From an uncultured Chloroflexia bacterium (GTDB taxonomy: Bacteria > Chloroflexota > Dehalococcoidia > Dehalococcoidales > RBG-16-60-22): a DNA stretch of 64,000 bases. This document shows, in pieces, positions 3,213-9,871 of the stretch. The DNA lies in the NCBI GenBank assembly GCA_963796365.1, contig CAWCLJ010000004.1:1162519-1226518 (forward strand), written 5' to 3'. The notes beneath the pieces are model-generated. The model was not told the origin of the DNA, did not search any database, and worked only from the letters and a program-made list of their open reading frames with translations. Within the stretch, counting starts at the first letter, position 1, and each line of letters starts with the position of its first letter. The position numbers and the translations under genes were made by a program.

Positions 3213-4088
3213 ATGGTCCAGAATCTTACTCAAACCAAATTTTCGCCGGAAGAAATTACCGGCCAACTGGAGCAGGAAGTCCGGTCATTATGGCGGATGA
3301 TGCCGCGAGGAATATTACGCGGCGCCGAGTTACTGGTTTCCGCAATTCCGGTCCTCTGTATCATCGCGACGGTCATCGCCCAGGTATTATATACGGGCTA
3401 CAATCCCTGGCAGGATGCTATCAGCTCGCTGGTATGGAGCCCTCACGGGGCCATTCAAACGGCCGTCTTTTACCTCCTCGGGTTCTCGGTGTTAATCCTG
3501 GCGGTAAAATTATTCTTCAAGGCTAAACAGACGGTTTTGAAGACCGGTATTATCGCGCTGGCCTTAACCGGGGTAGGAATGGTGATGGTGGGGATATTCC
3601 CCGCGGCGCGTAACGGGTTCCCGCAAACGGTTATCAGCGATATCCATTTAAACACTTCTTCGGCGCTTATCTTCCTTTTCCCCATCGCCTGCTTTATTAT
3701 GGCCCCGAAGCTGAAAGAGTGCTTTTCCCGCCGCTGGCTATCCACATACACGCTGATTTCCGGCATACTGGGTATTGTATTCATCGGGGTAGAGGCATGG
3801 CTGCACTTTGCCGGCCGAGGCTGGATGGGCACTCTGGAACGGCTGGAGATATTGAACGGGATTGCCTGGGTGCAAACGGTGACGATACTGACGCTTAACA
3901 ACAGCAGCCAAAAGCGGCCTGAGACTGCCGGCGAGCTTAAAAACGCCGCAAAGAGTGAAGCAAAACCGCGGAGAACTTCAAGAATTATCCGGGCCGCGGC
4001 ACTAACGGCTTTGTGCGCTTTGATTCTGGTTCCGGCTATTCAGTTTGCCGGGCGGTCACGTAAAAAACAGGTGAAGGGTGGGTGTTAA
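3213..4088 (+). CDS. multi-pass membrane protein, DUF998-like, with basic C-terminal tail
   Basis: 291-aa ORF. 'YNPWQDAISSLVWSPHG' matches the same motif as ORF 1087-1737. Several TM segments. Confidence 0.5.
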   Translation: MVQNLTQTKFSPEEITGQLEQEVRSLWRMMPRGILRGAELLVSAIPVLCIIATVIAQVLYTGYNPWQDAISSLVWSPHGAIQTAVFYLLGFSVLILAVKLFFKAKQTVLKTGIIALALTGVGMVMVGIFPAARNGFPQTVISDIHLNTSSALIFLFPIACFIMAPKLKECFSRRWLSTYTLISGILGIVFIGVEAWLHFAGRGWMGTLERLEILNGIAWVQTVTILTLNNSSQKRPETAGELKNAAKSEAKPRRTSRIIRAAALTALCALILVPAIQFAGRSRKKQVKGGC

Positions 4089-4267: not shown

Positions 4268-4480
4268 CATTATGTTATTTCAGGCTTGACCCAGGCGTGA
4301 TTCGTTTTTCAGGGGTATTATGGAAAGCTAATCTCGCATCAGGCGTGAATCGTTTTTTAAGGGTATTATGTTAAATCAGGCTCGGTCCAGGCATAAATCG
4401 TTTTTTTGACATATTATGGTAAGCCTAGATACGATTCAGGCTCAAGGGCCTTTTTCAGGGTAGTTATGGTAAGTGATAGT
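4268..4480 (+). repeat. 48-bp tandem repeat, about 4.3 units
   Basis: Unit starts at 4268, 4316, 4364, 4412 and 4461. Conserved cores are TATTATGG, CAGGC and CGTTTTTT; the rest is degenerate. Confidence 0.85.
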
Positions 4481-4741
4481 GGATAGTGAATAGTGAATAG
4501 GGTTGAGGGTTAAGGGTTGAGGGGTGAGAAAAACTTCAAACTCTAAATCCTAAAACTCTAAACAAGCACGAAATACGAAGCTCGAAGCACGAAAGCCCCA
4601 CCACAAACCATTCCGTCCCCCGTATCGCAGTACGGGTTCAACCTGGTTCCACCGAGGTCACCACGAGGTGAACGGTTCACCGTGAACGGGGCAGGCTTGC
4701 AACGGTATGGTTACGGGTGGGTGATAACCCATCTTACTACA

Positions 4742-4870
4742 TTATTTCAGGACAGCGCGGACAAGGCGGATAACGCACTCTTCATCCAAAGAGGGCAGGC
4801 CCAAGTGAGCGCCGGCCAGGCCGATGGGCGAGACTCTTTCTCCGGTGCTACCGAGCGTGCGGTAAGTCAT
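4742..4870 (-). pseudogene. aldo/keto reductase, N-terminal 42-codon fragment
   Basis: Translates to 'MTYRTLGSTGERVSPIGLAGAHLGLPSLDEECVIRLVRAVLK*', a typical AKR N-terminus. The reading frame then ends in repeat modules. Confidence 0.6.
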
Positions 4871-4992
4871 GGAATTTTCAGGATATTTAAACCGGAGGGT
4901 TTTAAGATTAGGGGAGAATACTTATAAAGGTTAGACTGAACGAGAAAGGAAGGTAGGTATTTGCGGTAAATAATTTTAGTGGATTATGTATC

Positions 4993-6672
4993 TTAAGGAA
5001 TTTTATTTTCATATACGTAATCGTATAAATTCCTAGCTTCTAGGTTGTTATTTTCAGCAAGTATTTGTGCTAAATATGAAGTCGATAAGGTAAGATTAGC
5101 ATTGTCTTTTGCAAACTGACGTATTTTTGCAAGTAATTGTTTTCCTTCAGATAAAGTATGCCTTTTTGAGGCATCATTCCATATTAGATCAAATTTTGGC
5201 TTTATTTCTTCATAAACGGTATAAAATTCTTTACCTTTTGCAATAGGCGAAAATTTTATAGTTGCTTGTACATATTTTATTAGAGTTGGTTCATGTAACT
5301 CGTTATAAGTTGAATTTAAGAAATCTAAAAAGAGATTACGCAATTGTTGTGGAAATATCGATAATAATAAATCTTGTTGAAGAAAAATATTTTCAAATTC
5401 ATGTCCAGGTGTGAACGTTGTCCTAATCCCATTTCTTAAAAGCTCAATTGAAATTTTCTCAAGATAATCACCTGGATAAAAATCTTTGTCTAATAATAAA
5501 GAAAAAGAAGGTTCTTTTGCAAAGAACATTTTGTAAGCATTTTTATACGAAGAACAATCTTGCCACTTATTCAAGCCGAAAATTGGAATGTTATGAGTAC
5601 GAACAGATGAACCAAAGGCCTTAGCAATTTGTGTCAATAATGCATAGTCTTGAACATTCTCAGTAAAAATTATTCTCTCTACATCCTCAAATTGCGAGGC
5701 CACAAGATTAAATGAACTACCTATATCTTGGCGAATTTCCTCTAGACGATCTCTATTTTGAGTTGGTGTTGGTTTTGAAATATTGATTCCGCGTTTTATA
5801 TGTAAAATATGACTGAAATCAACCTCATTCATTAATTCAGAGGAATGTGTTGCAATTATCATTGAACCGGTAAAATATTCACGGAAGGTCTGTATCATAA
5901 TATGTTGCATTTCAGGATGTAAGAATATTTCAGGTTCATCTAATACTATTGTAGAACAATAAGAAAGTCTGACGAGATGGGTCATGAGTTGTAGCCAAAT
6001 TTGGAAACCTTGACCAGCGTAAGAAATTTCTCCCGTAATATTTCTTTCGGTAAAGGGACAATAAAGAATGTTTGTAGAACGATCATGTCCGACATCTCCG
6101 AGTATAGTTCTATTCCATGTTTCATAAATAATATTTTTTACTAATTCTCGTTGCTCGGGAGTTAGAAGTTGATATATATGATTTCTAATATGTAAAGGAG
6201 CTAATGAAGTATTTAAATGACTAAGAATATGGTCCCTACTTAAAAGTGCTTCCTCTTCGCGGATTTGACCTAATGGAGGCATAAACCCTAAAAGTGATTT
6301 AAGTGATGAAGGAGAATAAGCAGGTAAATTACATATAACCTGTTCCTTCTCACTATCAATATGAACTATTATTTCACGGCCGTTATCAAGTTCTGCCTGA
6401 ATTTCTGCAATACCATCTTGAAAACCATGGATTAGTCTGCGTAAATTTAAATCCTTAAGGTCACTAGCGTACAGTTGATGTTCAACCTCTCGGGTAGTTC
6501 CTTTTGCAAATCTAAAAGAATTTTCAAGCAATCTAAGCGCACGAAGAAGAGAACTCTTTCCAACATTATTCTTCCCTGTTATTAGAACGAATGCTTGATT
6601 GTCAGTAGGAAATTCAAATTCGTGACTAGAGTATGGACCAAAATTTTGCAAAATTATCCGTTGGATTTTCAT
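4993..6672 (-). CDS. ABC-type ATPase fused to TOPRIM/DUF4435-like domain (OLD-family / PARIS-like nuclease candidate)
   Basis: Start 'MKIQRIILQNFGPY' at 6672. The listed ORF extends upstream only because it reads into the IS. Walker A 'GKNNVGKS', 'YAGQGFQ', Walker B 'IVLDEPEIFLHP', 'ATHS'. C-terminal 'IIFTENVQD' and 'LLLDKDF'. Strongly AT-rich. Confidence 0.7.
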   Translation of the reverse strand: MKIQRIILQNFGPYSSHEFEFPTDNQAFVLITGKNNVGKSSLLRALRLLENSFRFAKGTTREVEHQLYASDLKDLNLRRLIHGFQDGIAEIQAELDNGREIIVHIDSEKEQVICNLPAYSPSSLKSLLGFMPPLGQIREEEALLSRDHILSHLNTSLAPLHIRNHIYQLLTPEQRELVKNIIYETWNRTILGDVGHDRSTNILYCPFTERNITGEISYAGQGFQIWLQLMTHLVRLSYCSTIVLDEPEIFLHPEMQHIMIQTFREYFTGSMIIATHSSELMNEVDFSHILHIKRGINISKPTPTQNRDRLEEIRQDIGSSFNLVASQFEDVERIIFTENVQDYALLTQIAKAFGSSVRTHNIPIFGLNKWQDCSSYKNAYKMFFAKEPSFSLLLDKDFYPGDYLEKISIELLRNGIRTTFTPGHEFENIFLQQDLLLSIFPQQLRNLFLDFLNSTYNELHEPTLIKYVQATIKFSPIAKGKEFYTVYEEIKPKFDLIWNDASKRHTLSEGKQLLAKIRQFAKDNANLTLSTSYLAQILAENNNLEARNLYDYVYENKIP

Positions 6673-6820
6673 AATATTTGACAAAGTATAAAACAAATAA
6701 ATAGGACAGTCAAGAAATAAAAATCGTTCATAACGCTTAAGATATACAAAAATCTCGTTTATTCTAAAAGCTAAATCATTATTTGTCAGTCCCCTCCTAG
6801 CCATATACGTAACCGAACCA

Positions 6821-8183
6821 GAGGTTCCGTCAATAGGTGTGTAAATGTCAGGCGACGGCAAGTACCTCCTCCTGTTTGATTTCTCCCGGGCCCAGGCTTT
6901 CGATACCCAGGTAAACTTCCTGTAATATCTCCGGTGCATCCAGCTTTCTGAATCGCTGCTCGGCAATCAAAAGCATCTTCCAGGTTACTGCCGTAGCGTT
7001 GGCCACTTTCTTAAAGCGCTTGGCCGCATCGGTCCGCAGTCTCAGAGCGGCGAAGGGCGATTCGACCGGGTTGGTGGTTCGAAGATGCTTCCAGTGCTCC
7101 TTCGGGAACCGATAAAAGGTCACCATCCGCTCCCAGTCATGCTCTAGTGCCGCGGCGGCCCGGTCATAGCCTTCTTTCCGGCACCAGCGGACGAAGTGGT
7201 CGCGCTTAACTTCGGCTTCCTCGCGGTCTGCCGAGTACACAATTCCCTGTAATTCATTCTTAGCATTGCCTTGTGCCTTCTTCGGTAACTTATCCAGCAC
7301 GTTTCGCACTTTGTGATTCCAGCAACGCTGCTCCAGCGCATCGGGAAAGACAGCATTCAAGGCTCCCCAGATGCCCAGGTGACCATCGCCCACTACCAGC
7401 CGGGGACAGTTCAGACCGCGTCCTTTGAGGGAACGCAACAGGTCGGACCAGCTTTCGGTAGATTCGCGATACCCGGGCTCCACCGCCAGGATCACCTTCC
7501 GCCCATCGCTTAATGCGCCGATCACCACCAGCAGCGCCGCCTTAGTTTTCTCCAGACCAGCCTTGATGTATACTCCGTCAACCCACATGTAGACCAGTCT
7601 CAGACCTTTGAGACTGCGCCGCCGCCACTCTTCCCATTCAGCTTGCCAGCTCTCCTTGAGTCGGGCTATCGTACTGGCGGAGATGGGCGCCTCTTCTCCC
7701 AACAGACCCCGTAGCGCCAGGTCAAAATCACCTTGCGCCAGACCGTGCAGGTAAAGCTGTGGTAAAAGCTGATTTACCTCTTTCGTCCTTCTGGCGAACA
7801 ACGGCAATACCCGGCTCTTGAAACGCTCCGCCAGACCTCTGACCCTGGGCCGGCGCACGGTAATGGTCCCACAGCCCAGCGTTAGCCTTCGCCGCTTGCC
7901 GTAGCCATTCCGGTACGCCCGCGAAGCATCCAGTCCCTCGCGCCGCTCGGACTTGCCGCGCCCCAACAGCTCTGTTATTTCATCTTCCAGTAGAGCCTGG
8001 ATGAATTCCCTCACCTTCACCCGCACCATCTCTTCGAGATAATCCCAGACTTTACTTGACGACTCCGGCTTCCCTGTGGTTTGCTTTCCCATGGTGGTGG
8101 GTACCCTCCTTCTGTTTGTTTCATCACTAACAGAAAGGGTACTCGCTGCCGCTAACTATTTCCACACTTTTTGATGATACCTC
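6821..8183 (-). mobile_element. IS256-family insertion sequence, apparently intact
   Basis: Imperfect terminal inverted repeats (GAGGTTCCGTCAATAGGTGTGTAAATG... versus the reverse complement GAGGTATCATCAAAAAGTGTGGAAATA...). 8-bp direct target duplication CCGAACCA at 6813-6820 and 8184-8191. Confidence 0.9.
6848..8092 (-). CDS. IS256-family (mutator-type) transposase
   Basis: 414-aa ORF with 'VYMWVDGVY', 'VVGDGHLG' and 'RCWNHKVRNVL' blocks characteristic of Transposase_mut. Confidence 0.9.
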   Translation of the reverse strand: MGKQTTGKPESSSKVWDYLEEMVRVKVREFIQALLEDEITELLGRGKSERREGLDASRAYRNGYGKRRRLTLGCGTITVRRPRVRGLAERFKSRVLPLFARRTKEVNQLLPQLYLHGLAQGDFDLALRGLLGEEAPISASTIARLKESWQAEWEEWRRRSLKGLRLVYMWVDGVYIKAGLEKTKAALLVVIGALSDGRKVILAVEPGYRESTESWSDLLRSLKGRGLNCPRLVVGDGHLGIWGALNAVFPDALEQRCWNHKVRNVLDKLPKKAQGNAKNELQGIVYSADREEAEVKRDHFVRWCRKEGYDRAAAALEHDWERMVTFYRFPKEHWKHLRTTNPVESPFAALRLRTDAAKRFKKVANATAVTWKMLLIAEQRFRKLDAPEILQEVYLGIESLGPGEIKQEEVLAVA

Positions 8184-8291
8184 CCGAACCAGGAAACCAT
8201 ACGCGTGTACTATAAGTGAGGTCACTTATTCTCGTGGAATATATACAGGTGGAATAATCGTAACGGCAATACGATTAAGGTGGTAACCGCT

Positions 8292-8522
8292 ATGTCTATC
8301 ACAGAAAAGTCAGAAAAAAAGATGCTCTCCCGGCTAAAGGGAGACAGCCGCTCCGGCCTGAAAATAGAAGTGGGGCCGGACAAACGCATTCGCCTGGTCC
8401 TGGATAAGAGTGGAGGCTCCCGGCAAAACTATATCAGCCCGGCCTATCTTGCCCAGGGAGAACTGGATTCTCTCCCCAATGAGACTTTTTTCGACGGGCA
8501 GGATGATGACTTCGATTTCTAA
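8292..8522 (+). CDS. small hypothetical protein with acidic C-terminus
   Basis: ATG at 8292 preceded by AAGGTGG. 76 aa ending in 'DGQDDDFDF'. Host-like composition. No family recognised. Confidence 0.4.
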   Translation: MSITEKSEKKMLSRLKGDSRSGLKIEVGPDKRIRLVLDKSGGSRQNYISPAYLAQGELDSLPNETFFDGQDDDFDF

Positions 8523-8567
8523 AGGCGGGTCGATGGCGGCGCCAAACCTGAATGACGGTACTGATGA

Positions 8568-9644
8568 ATGCGCATAGGTATGATAGCTCCCCTGGAAATG
8601 CGTGTCCCCCCGGTGGCTTACGGCGGCACGGAACTGCTGGTAAGCCTGCTCACGGAAGAGCTGGTGAGGCTGGGGCATAACGTCACCCTTTACGCCAGCG
8701 GGGATTCAGTGACCAATGCCAGGCTGGTATCCTGCTGCTCCACATTTTTAAGAGGGTCGCCCAAAGATAAGTGGGTCTATAACCTGCGCAACGTGGCGGC
8801 CTGCCTGGAAAACGCCGGGAGCTTCGATATTATCCACAACCATACGTTTACCGAGGGGCTTTCCATGGCGGGGTTGAGCAAGACGCCCGTCCTCACCACG
8901 CTGCACGGCATCCTCGAGACGGAATGGAAAGAGCTTTTCCTGGCTTATAAAGGCTGGTACAACACCATCAGTTTTTCCGCCAAGGAATTACTGCCGGCGA
9001 AAGACCGTTTTGCCGGGGTCATCTATAACGCCATCGACGTGGACTCCTATCCTTTTAAAGCGGCCGCCGGAGAGGACTACATGCTGTTTTTAAGCCGCAT
9101 CAGCCATGAAAAAGGGCCGGACATCGCCATCGAGGTGGCAAAAAGGATGGGGAGGAAGCTCATCATCGCCGGGAACATAGATACCAGAGATGTGCCTTTC
9201 TGGGAAGAAGAAATCAAGCCTGAAATCGATAACGACCTGATTACATACATCGGGGAAGCCGATTATAAGACGAAAAGAAAGCTGATGTCCGGGGCTTACT
9301 GCCTGCTGGCGCCCATCACCTGGAACGAGCCTTTCGGCCTTTTTATGGTAGAGGCGATGGCCTGCGGCACGCCGGTAATCGTTTTCAACCGGGGTTCGGC
9401 GCCGGAAATCGTCATCGACGGCCAGACGGGCTTTGTCGTGGACACGATAGACGATATGGTAAAAGCGGTGAAAAACGCCGGCAAAATAGATAGGGCGCGC
9501 TGCCGCCGGCACGTCAAATTCAACTTCGATGTACGGCGACTGGGGCAGGCCTATCTGGACGCCTACCGCCTGATACTGGAAGAAACTCACGGCAACGGCC
9601 GAAAAGGCTCCATGGAAACAAGGGAACAGTACTCTAATTACTAA
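8568..9644 (+). CDS. glycosyltransferase family 4
   Basis: 'PPVAYGGTELLVSLLTEEL' N-terminus and the E-x7-E region 'EPFGLFMVEAMACGTPVI'. Confidence 0.85.
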   Translation: MRIGMIAPLEMRVPPVAYGGTELLVSLLTEELVRLGHNVTLYASGDSVTNARLVSCCSTFLRGSPKDKWVYNLRNVAACLENAGSFDIIHNHTFTEGLSMAGLSKTPVLTTLHGILETEWKELFLAYKGWYNTISFSAKELLPAKDRFAGVIYNAIDVDSYPFKAAAGEDYMLFLSRISHEKGPDIAIEVAKRMGRKLIIAGNIDTRDVPFWEEEIKPEIDNDLITYIGEADYKTKRKLMSGAYCLLAPITWNEPFGLFMVEAMACGTPVIVFNRGSAPEIVIDGQTGFVVDTIDDMVKAVKNAGKIDRARCRRHVKFNFDVRRLGQAYLDAYRLILEETHGNGRKGSMETREQYSNY

Positions 9645-9871
9645 CATCAATTGGCAGGGGGTAAGTATCAATTGCCAAGTATCAAGTATCAAGGAAGTGA
9701 TAAGTGATAATCGTTAAATGATTAACCCCCTCCCCGAACCGATATCCTTCGCCAGGCTCAGGATGACAAAGGAGGGGAAGATTGATTATAAACAGAGATA
9801 CATGAGTTTGGCCAGTCATCCTCTCCCTTTGGTAAAGGGAGAGTAAGAGAAGGATTTTGAGTAAAAAATAA

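Follow-up and report, generated by a model that had tools for sequence, protein, structure and literature searches.

An ABC-ATPase and TOPRIM protein of the OLD family encoded in an AT-rich island of a Dehalococcoidia genome

Which kind of protein is encoded by a lone AT-rich gene in the genome of an uncultured Chloroflexia bacterium (GTDB class Dehalococcoidia, order Dehalococcoidales, RBG-16-60-22), and does it represent a new immune system? The gene lies on the reverse strand at 4993..6672 of the 64,000 nucleotides (nt) analyzed here, which are referred to as the window (assembly GCA_963796365.1, contig CAWCLJ010000004.1, positions 1,162,519 to 1,226,518 of the forward strand; coordinates below count from the first letter of the window). 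An initial annotation had described it as a recently acquired, stand-alone gene for an ABC-ATPase joined to a TOPRIM/DUF4435-like domain, either OLD-like or resembling a fusion of the PARIS proteins AriA and AriB, and had proposed it as a candidate for an uncharacterised system. That the feature is real and that its product combines an ABC-ATPase with a TOPRIM domain could be confirmed with high confidence. The gene belongs to an uncharacterised clade of class-1-type OLD-family nucleases, which is poorly detected by current models. It is not a new system, because fused AriAB and stand-alone OLD proteins are already known; to speak of an uncharacterised system was an overstatement, and some members of the clade already carry an OLD label. 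Its product is probably a stand-alone OLD-family nuclease with a head like that of P2 Old, a TOPRIM domain like that of AriB and a role against phages.

The complete coding sequence comprises 559 codons and a stop codon and was delineated from the open reading frame (ORF), Pfam matches, an alignment of homologues and AlphaFold2 (AF2) models. The chance of a 559-codon open frame at such a composition is about 1e-19. Because Met1 is nearly invariant across an alignment of 57 homologous sequences, the ATG at 6672 was preferred as start codon over a TTG at 6966; the longer reading from this TTG, which overlaps a neighboring transposase gene, is not supported in view of the conserved methionine. 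All seven motifs quoted in the initial annotation were found in the order given there: ILQNFGPY (starting at residue 7), GKNNVGKS (33), YAGQGFQ (218), IVLDEPEIFLHP (242), ATHS (274), IIFTENVQD (334) and LLLDKDF (392). The window copy is full length and retains all 50 invariant columns of the family, and no match to the exact protein was obtained in the contig index.

Residues 1-300 (5773..6672, reverse strand) form a compact ABC/SMC-type ATPase head with a complete set of catalytic motifs. Pfam AAA_15 (E 5e-19, 69.5 bits at a cut-off of 32.1) and AAA_21 (E 9e-16, 59.2 bits at a cut-off of 27) were both matched above their thresholds, and the motif residues are invariant, so that the ATPase part of the initial description is borne out; an hhalign match to P2 Old likewise supports this domain. 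The Walker A motif GKNNVGKS occupies residues 33-40 (6553-6576), followed by a Q-loop region, PPLGQ, at residues about 132-136, the signature AGQGFQ at residues 219-224 (within 6001-6021), Walker B IVLDEP with the catalytic glutamate E246 (5932-5949) and the H-loop ATHS at residues 274-277 (5842-5853), all encoded on the reverse strand. In the 57 sequences G33, N35, N36, G38 and K39 of Walker A, G220, Q221, G222 and Q224 of the signature, D245, E246 and P247 of Walker B and T275, H276 and S277 of the H-loop do not vary. Walker A and the signature are separated by a short insert of about 175 amino acids (aa), which in the AF2 model is made up mostly of beta strands and three short helices; class 1 OLD proteins are homodimers in which a dimerization domain interrupts the ATPase. 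The helical lobe of the head carries the motif LAPRHLRNH (residues 158-169, 6166-6201, reverse strand), the core of which, RH(L/F)RN, is kept in the core family and in its more distant relatives, namely a bridge group and an outer shell of 570-610 aa, but is absent from P2 Old. All PADLOC matches of the window protein (AriA, mad3, ATPase-Toprim_I-B, NsnB, PtuA, GajA, Old and AriAB) rest on the head; AriA is the top model for the whole protein (E 1.9e-20), while the Old model matched with E 2.5e-13 and with its best stretch at the N-terminus. Searches of the full-length protein against the PDB by profile and by fold returned only matches of the ATPase head (PtuA, Rad50, SMC, GajA) and were uninformative on the C-terminus.

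The head is joined to the C-terminal part by a conserved linker at residues 314-331 (5680..5733, reverse strand; R..IGSSFNLVASQFEDV; GSxFNLxASQF), which was recognized in the alignment and in the AF2 models. It contains four invariant residues, yet it is the sole segment with a predicted local distance difference test (pLDDT) score below 50 in both AF2 models, and by hhalign it aligns with LHSAFTLSNSS of P2 Old. The TOPRIM core follows at residues 332-432 (5377..5679, reverse strand), as supported by invariant columns, AF2 topology, Foldseek and a profile of the AriB family. It is modeled as a contiguous b-a-b-a-b-a-b arrangement over residues 333-420, with strands at 333-337, 359-363, 389-394 and 416-420 and no helical insertion. 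An all-helical domain then extends over residues 433-559 (4996..5376, reverse strand) and contains an invariant G510-K511 pair (K511 at 5140-5142), which is also retained in the more distant relatives. Model quality was high for the full-length protein (pLDDT 89.9) and for the C-terminal domain alone (pLDDT 90.2, predicted template modeling score 0.82).

The acidic residues expected of a TOPRIM site are placed in the model at the C-terminal ends of the strands: E338 (5659-5661) after the first, D395 (5488-5490) and D397 (5482-5484) after the third and E427 (5392-5394), together with E425, after the fourth. D342, E425 and N428 are further conserved residues of the core. Within the 57-sequence alignment E338, D342, D395, D397 and E427 are invariant and E425 is invariant or nearly so. 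The conserved C-terminal motifs read FTExxxD (E338/D342), LDxDYYP (D395/D397) and TPGKEIEN (T421-G423-E425-E427-N428), besides G510-K511. By order, E338/D342/D395/D397/E427 correspond to E26, D30, D88, E90 and E122, which form the two-metal site of AriB (PMC11464382), with spacings of 4/53/2/30 compared to 4/58/2/32 residues. When the C-terminal domain alone was subjected to a Foldseek search of the PDB, AriB (8ux9_A) was retrieved first (E 6e-3, probability 1.0, about 300 aligned columns), followed at ranks 2 and 3 by the TOPRIM region of the Burkholderia OLD protein (BpOLD, 6nk8). A hidden Markov model of the C-terminal region had AriB as its sole relevant match in the PDB (E 0.14), in an alignment that brings DxD and ExEN into register, and hhalign against a 36-sequence AriB family gave E 3.8e-5 over the core from DxD to ExEN. 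Judged by these profiles and models, the C-terminal 260 aa is a predicted TOPRIM nuclease, the catalytic core of which leans towards PARIS AriB. A TOPRIM fold in this region had been named in advance as one point on which the earlier reading could fail, and it was found in both profile and structure comparison (AriB, BpOLD). Of the TOPRIM/DUF4435-like C-terminus that had been proposed, the TOPRIM half therefore stands, with AriB and BpOLD as top folds and with E and DxD invariant, but membership in DUF4435 does not, as no match was obtained at E ≤ 10. Individual family members graze Pfam, seven of 29 matching DUF3226 and two of 29 DUF4435 (best E 4.4e-4); a literature search for DUF3226 returned nothing.

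How widespread is this protein? About 65 full-length homologues of 550-580 aa with 34-68% identity were found among 5.8 billion clustered proteins. They are mostly metagenomic singletons, some of which are already labeled by JGI or NCBI as 'ATP-dependent endonuclease of OLD family', 'ATP-dependent nuclease' or 'AAA family ATPase'. A close relative occurs in 23 of 185,579 species-representative genomes, which belong to at least 15 phyla. The carriers include Dehalococcoidia, Acidobacteriota, Bacteroidota, Verrucomicrobiota, Planctomycetota, Gammaproteobacteria, Bacillota, Omnitrophica, Latescibacterota and a Woesearchaeote, and the distribution is patchy and mainly bacterial. That the catalytic motifs are intact at 34-68% identity across phyla implies that the protein has been kept under purifying selection. 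A sensitive search with the C-terminal profile retrieved 980 representative clusters, about 31 of which are the core family; the remainder are mostly proteins of 570-610 aa that share this architecture as well as the invariant E/D, DxD, ExEN and GK residues, but in which the first motif has the canonical form VEGxD. Homology between the core family (A1) and a bridge group (Ensifer, Coriobacteriia and others) extends over the full length (hhalign E 2e-67, 536 columns), and the same holds for the outer shell of relatives. In both the bridge group and the outer shell PADLOC AriAB was the top match, extending from Walker B into the TOPRIM domain (4e-24 to 3e-32), and PADLOC Old was matched with E-values down to 3.5e-31 (37 members). 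Five members matched Pfam OLD-like_TOPRIM, and DUF4435 and DUF3226 were also grazed. Matches in PHROGs were to unnamed families and came about via the ATPase.

What defines class 1 within the OLD family is that its members are encoded by single genes in variable neighborhoods (PMC10568477, PMC12796447). For two of these proteins, P2 Old and Vc OLD, a function as anti-phage nuclease is proven (PMC10568477, PMC12796447, PMC12392090). Like phage P2 Old, the Thermus scotoductus OLD protein (PDB 6P74) and Vibrio cholerae Vc OLD, the window protein is one chain in the range of about 530-590 aa that carries an ABC-ATPase at the N-terminus and a TOPRIM domain at the C-terminus, has no partner, lies in variable neighborhoods and lacks a helical insertion in its TOPRIM core. 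The core-family profile, which was compared to P2 Old and to AriA as single-sequence templates, aligned with P2 Old over head, linker and first TOPRIM strand (hhalign, 329 columns, E 1.6e-9). A sequence tie to P2 Old that continues through the DxD motif was seen via the outer shell only, whose profile aligned over 397 columns (E 5e-17). In contrast to class 1 proteins, the first TOPRIM motif of the window clade is TE[DN] instead of EG, and the clade has an AriB-like ExEN(L/Y)(F/L)L. Compared to P2 Old the head is about 60 aa shorter and carries the additional RH(L/F)RN motif; the C-terminal domain alone could not be aligned, and Pfam OLD-like_TOPRIM misses the C-terminus of the window protein. 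As the head aligns with Old and the C-terminus with AriB, the protein combines an Old-like layout of the head with a TOPRIM core resembling that of AriB. The earlier alternative of an OLD-like or fused-PARIS-like protein is thereby narrowed: membership in the OLD family holds, with a P2 Old-like head and an AriB-like TOPRIM domain, but an AriA-type head does not, since only 55 columns align with AriA.

Other members of the OLD family were also compared. The class 3 effectors of retrons (Retron-Eco8; PADLOC ATPase-Toprim_I-B) share a best stretch at residues 239-398, from Walker B into the TOPRIM domain (E 7.5e-18), and ATPase-Toprim_I-B is the only PADLOC model the best stretch of which enters the TOPRIM domain of the window protein. 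This fits the published phylogeny, in which class 4 is nested within class 3 (PMC12796447). The best NCBIfam match was retron_eff_Eco8, but with 38 bits it stayed far below the cut-off of 250. A retron effector was rejected, as no reverse transcriptase ORF lies nearby, no Rfam match was obtained within 12 kb and no such gene is among the conserved neighbors of homologues. GajA of Gabija (class 2 OLD) has the same two-domain plan, several PADLOC GajA models were matched with E 1e-15 to 1e-11, and 8sm3 was third in the full-length fold search. Gabija was rejected as well, because no GajB/UvrD-like helicase was found in the window or beside homologues and the helical TOPRIM insertion is missing. 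Cran1, a class 5 protein that is essential and vertically inherited in Sulfolobales, was dismissed on account of the patchy, mostly bacterial distribution of the clade, its foreign composition and the lack of a TOPRIM insertion.

Was the gene acquired, and does it act with a partner? Its G+C content is 32.6%, compared to a window mean of 49.8% and to 50-57% in ten neighboring genes, which agrees with the earlier estimate by eye of about one-third against more than half in the flanks; at third codon positions the gene has 20.5% G+C and the ten neighbors 55-71%. The same tendency was observed in all 24 loci that were compared, the window and 23 loci of homologues: the gene was 5-19 percentage points poorer in G+C than its flanks (34-67% G+C), so that its composition follows that of the host but is always lower. 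No partner gene is present at the window locus, the surroundings of which consist of an IS256 element, a glycosyltransferase, DUF998 proteins and hydrolases, and an all-against-all clustering of neighbors revealed none that is conserved over the 24 loci. Any one neighbor family is common to at most four of them, at varying distance and orientation. No helicase, reverse transcriptase or retron RNA was found beside the window gene or among the conserved neighbors. Horizontal acquisition is evident from the foreign composition, the rare, phylum-spanning distribution and the lack of conserved synteny. The description as a stand-alone, recently acquired gene without a partner is in line with these data.

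The contexts of the homologues are variable, and none is a conserved housekeeping operon; some are defence or toxin islands. At one locus (L034, 2818-11551) the homologue lies in an island together with an N6-methylase and an Eco57I-type restriction enzyme, a PemK toxin, an NS endonuclease, a Fic protein and a DUF1016/YhcG nuclease, and ParE at one and an MNT-HepT pair at another locus were also found. In Paenibacillus illinoisensis (L030) the gene immediately upstream of the homologue (8001-9680) encodes another AAA_15/AAA_21 protein of 672 aa (5732-7750), different from the homologue, which may be a second OLD/Gabija-like ATPase, and the pair may form a two-gene defence spot. Three homologues on related metagenomic contigs are located just downstream of an HflX-type GTPase gene (L027 8001-9692, L035 6001-7587, L037 2620-4293). 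The upstream genes PGK, TIM, miaA, dapF and an aminotransferase are conserved in two of these three loci and the genes on the far side differ in all three, which suggests that the spot downstream of hflX is a lineage-specific integration hotspot. A contig from an independent sample (L038, Logan ERR10755942) corresponds to window 4682-6850 and shares these 2.2 kb, including 30 bp of the end of the insertion sequence, with a 1-nt deletion as the sole difference. No tRNA gene is present in the window, no Rfam element was detected within 12 kb at E ≤ 0.01, and neither an integrase nor att repeats that would mark a mobile element were found. The only repeat bracketing the gene is 14 nt long with 13 of 14 positions identical, which is at chance level (one observed, 1.25 expected).

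Since the C-terminus resembles AriB, it has to be asked if the protein is a true single-chain PARIS (AriAB), in which the head would detect anti-restriction proteins such as Ocr and the TOPRIM domain would cleave host tRNA and thus arrest translation. This reading is regarded as rather unlikely. PARIS is a class 4 OLD system of AriA and the DUF4435 tRNase AriB, and fused AriA-AriB proteins exist (PMC11464382). It shares with the window protein AriB as the best solved structure for the C-terminus, by fold and by sequence (AriB family E 3.8e-5), all five catalytic acidic residues of AriB at near-equal spacing, and PADLOC AriA as top model for the whole protein and AriAB for its distant relatives; in addition, the subclade of the window has the G-H of AriB before ExEN (PGHEFEN compared to LGHSLEN). 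However, real AriA could be aligned over only 55 columns around Walker B, as against 329 for P2 Old. The window protein is one chain of 559 aa, whereas PARIS consists of 464 and 306 aa encoded by two genes or corresponds to the 694-position AriAB model of PADLOC, and its head of about 300 aa is about 160 aa shorter than AriA (464 aa), so that the insertion from which the hexameric scaffold of AriA is built is for the most part missing. Moreover, the AriB and AriAB models of PADLOC and Pfam DUF4435 miss the C-terminus, the helical domains cannot be aligned with AriB, and the sequestration, release and dimerization of AriB cannot operate in a covalent fusion.

A role outside defence, either in chromosome or cell-cycle maintenance like that of Cran1 or in DNA repair, is considered very improbable. 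Cran1 is a housekeeping OLD ATPase and nickase (PMC12796447), and several homologues do lie between ordinary metabolic genes, for example after hflX. Against such a role stand the presence in only 23 of 185,579 species genomes from scattered phyla, the invariably foreign composition, the lack of conserved synteny, the split ORF in a variant of the same locus and a TOPRIM domain without the alpha-helical insertion of Cran1 and of most OLD proteins outside class 1. Somewhat less remote, though still improbable, is that a decayed mobile element left the gene behind as a selfish or addictive nuclease, or that it is an incipient pseudogene, in either case without benefit for the host: the AT-rich island adjoins an IS256 element and a truncated gene fragment, a second sample contains a frameshifted copy, and no partner or regulator gene is present. 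Yet the window copy is full length with 50 of 50 invariant columns kept, the catalytic motifs are intact across phyla at 34-68% identity, a plausible, putative promoter is intact, and integrase, att repeats and tRNA are all missing.

The assignment as a stand-alone OLD-family nuclease with an anti-phage role has to be weighed against several observations that speak against it. By sequence the domain is only weakly linked to AriB (E 0.14 and 3.8e-5), the template modeling score of the fold match to AriB is modest (0.42), and the C-terminal profile gave no alignment with the C-terminal region of P2 Old. Residues 295-559, that is the C-terminal 265 aa, retrieved nothing from Pfam and PADLOC at E ≤ 10 when searched alone; the TOPRIM domain was therefore assigned via profile, fold and transitive homology. 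Its first motif is (F/A)TE[DNHY] and not the usual EG. Many of the loci are lone insertions amid housekeeping genes without a recognizable defence island, and collections of sequenced phages and plasmids contained no close relative, the best match being a protein with 25% identity on a Cupriavidus chromid. In the independent sample (L038) a single C is missing at window position 6153, so that the ORF falls into two pieces of 235 and 330 aa; either the assembly is in error here or the allele is disrupted. Finally, the archaeal class 5 OLD ATPase Cran1, a nickase, shows that a housekeeping role other than defence is possible in the OLD family (PMC12796447).

If the protein is an OLD-family nuclease of this kind, knowledge on OLD proteins and ABC-ATPases (PMC10568477, PMC12392090, PMC11464382, PMC12409363) permits a mechanism to be proposed. 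The working form would be a dimer or a higher oligomer that depends on ATP, and engagement of its heads would sense an infection cue, either a phage protein, as in AriA, or the status of DNA ends or nucleotides, as in Old and GajA. Via the linker, the head would then license cleavage of nucleic acid by the TOPRIM site in cis. Either DNA might be the target, nicked or degraded as it is by P2 Old, Vc OLD and GajA, or tRNA, which is cut by AriB, and cutting would halt phage replication or arrest the infected cell. Given a role in defence, the chances that DNA is the substrate are put at about even, and those of tRNA or another RNA are clearly lower. The linker at residues 314-331 and the RH(L/F)RN motif may be the coupling and sensing elements. 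It is also conceivable, though doubtful, that the clade is a separate, sixth OLD lineage and amounts to a compact one-protein PARIS, in which the linker would couple a P2-Old-type head in cis to a tRNA-cleaving TOPRIM domain of the AriB type. In that case a single chain with an estimated mass of 64 kDa would both sense the phage cue and shut down translation, and RH(L/F)RN would be a sensing or RNA-binding surface.

Within a widespread family of defence proteins, the class 1 OLD nucleases form the branch about which least is understood. An anti-phage role has been demonstrated only for P2 Old and Vc OLD, and reviews explicitly question whether single-gene OLD proteins are enough for defence. 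As the TOPRIM domain models miss the clade described here, censuses of the DefenseFinder or PADLOC type probably overlook it, and annotation would gain from a profile built from alignments A1 and A2 that recognizes the domain. With an Old-like head and an AriB-like core in a single chain, the clade is a handy test case for the gating of a TOPRIM nuclease by an ABC head, and for whether the choice between DNA and tRNA as substrate tracks the TOPRIM subtype.

The gene is situated in an AT-rich island of 28-34% G+C (4871..6820), which was delimited by composition. Upstream of the start codon a promoter-like TTGACT-17 nt-TATACT is located at 6685..6713 on the reverse strand; it is putative, based on a consensus match of 10 of 12 positions, and ends 12 nt before the ATG. 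No Shine-Dalgarno sequence was found between this site and the ATG. About 150 bp upstream of the ATG follows a single copy of a 1363 bp IS256-family element (6821..8183, reverse strand), the transposase of which (6848-8092, reverse strand) matches Pfam Transposase_mut with E 2.5e-61. It is flanked by a perfect 8 bp target duplication, CCGAACCA, at 6813-6820 and 8184-8191, so that the adjoining IS256 reported before is real. The terminal inverted repeats are imperfect and begin with GAGGT; about 20 of 28 positions match, by eye only. The inverted-repeat search missed these ends, and an unshifted comparison of the termini gave 6 of 30 matches. The ends were therefore placed from the 8 bp target duplication and a visual comparison of the termini. 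Gene and proximal promoter-like site are uninterrupted. Since the AT-rich sequence continues past the element (8193-8350, 43% G+C), the insertion sequence landed inside the upstream edge of the island.

On the other side of the island, a reading of 42 codons (4742..4870, reverse strand; MTYRTLGSTGERVSPIGLAGAHLG...) resembles the N-terminus of an aldo-keto reductase (AKR) and ends with a stop codon, after which no reductase-like sequence follows. It is too short for Pfam, and its best relevant match in the PDB, a dehydrogenase of the AKR family, is not significant (E 0.4); the fragment is taken as genomic context and is not counted among the parts of the OLD-like system. In the non-coding stretch beyond this fragment, four direct repeats of about 48 nt with the core TTTTTCAGGGGTATTATGGAAAG were observed at 4292-4473, and runs of the heptamers AGTGAAT, AGGGTTG and AAGCACG follow them at 4472-4528 and 4564-4593. 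The repeat array as a whole (4292-4593) could represent iterons, a regulatory array or the remnant of a mobile element. Further along, between 1087 and 4088, two paralogous DUF998 membrane proteins (1087-1737 and 3213-4088) are encoded on either side of an alpha/beta hydrolase (1882-2778).

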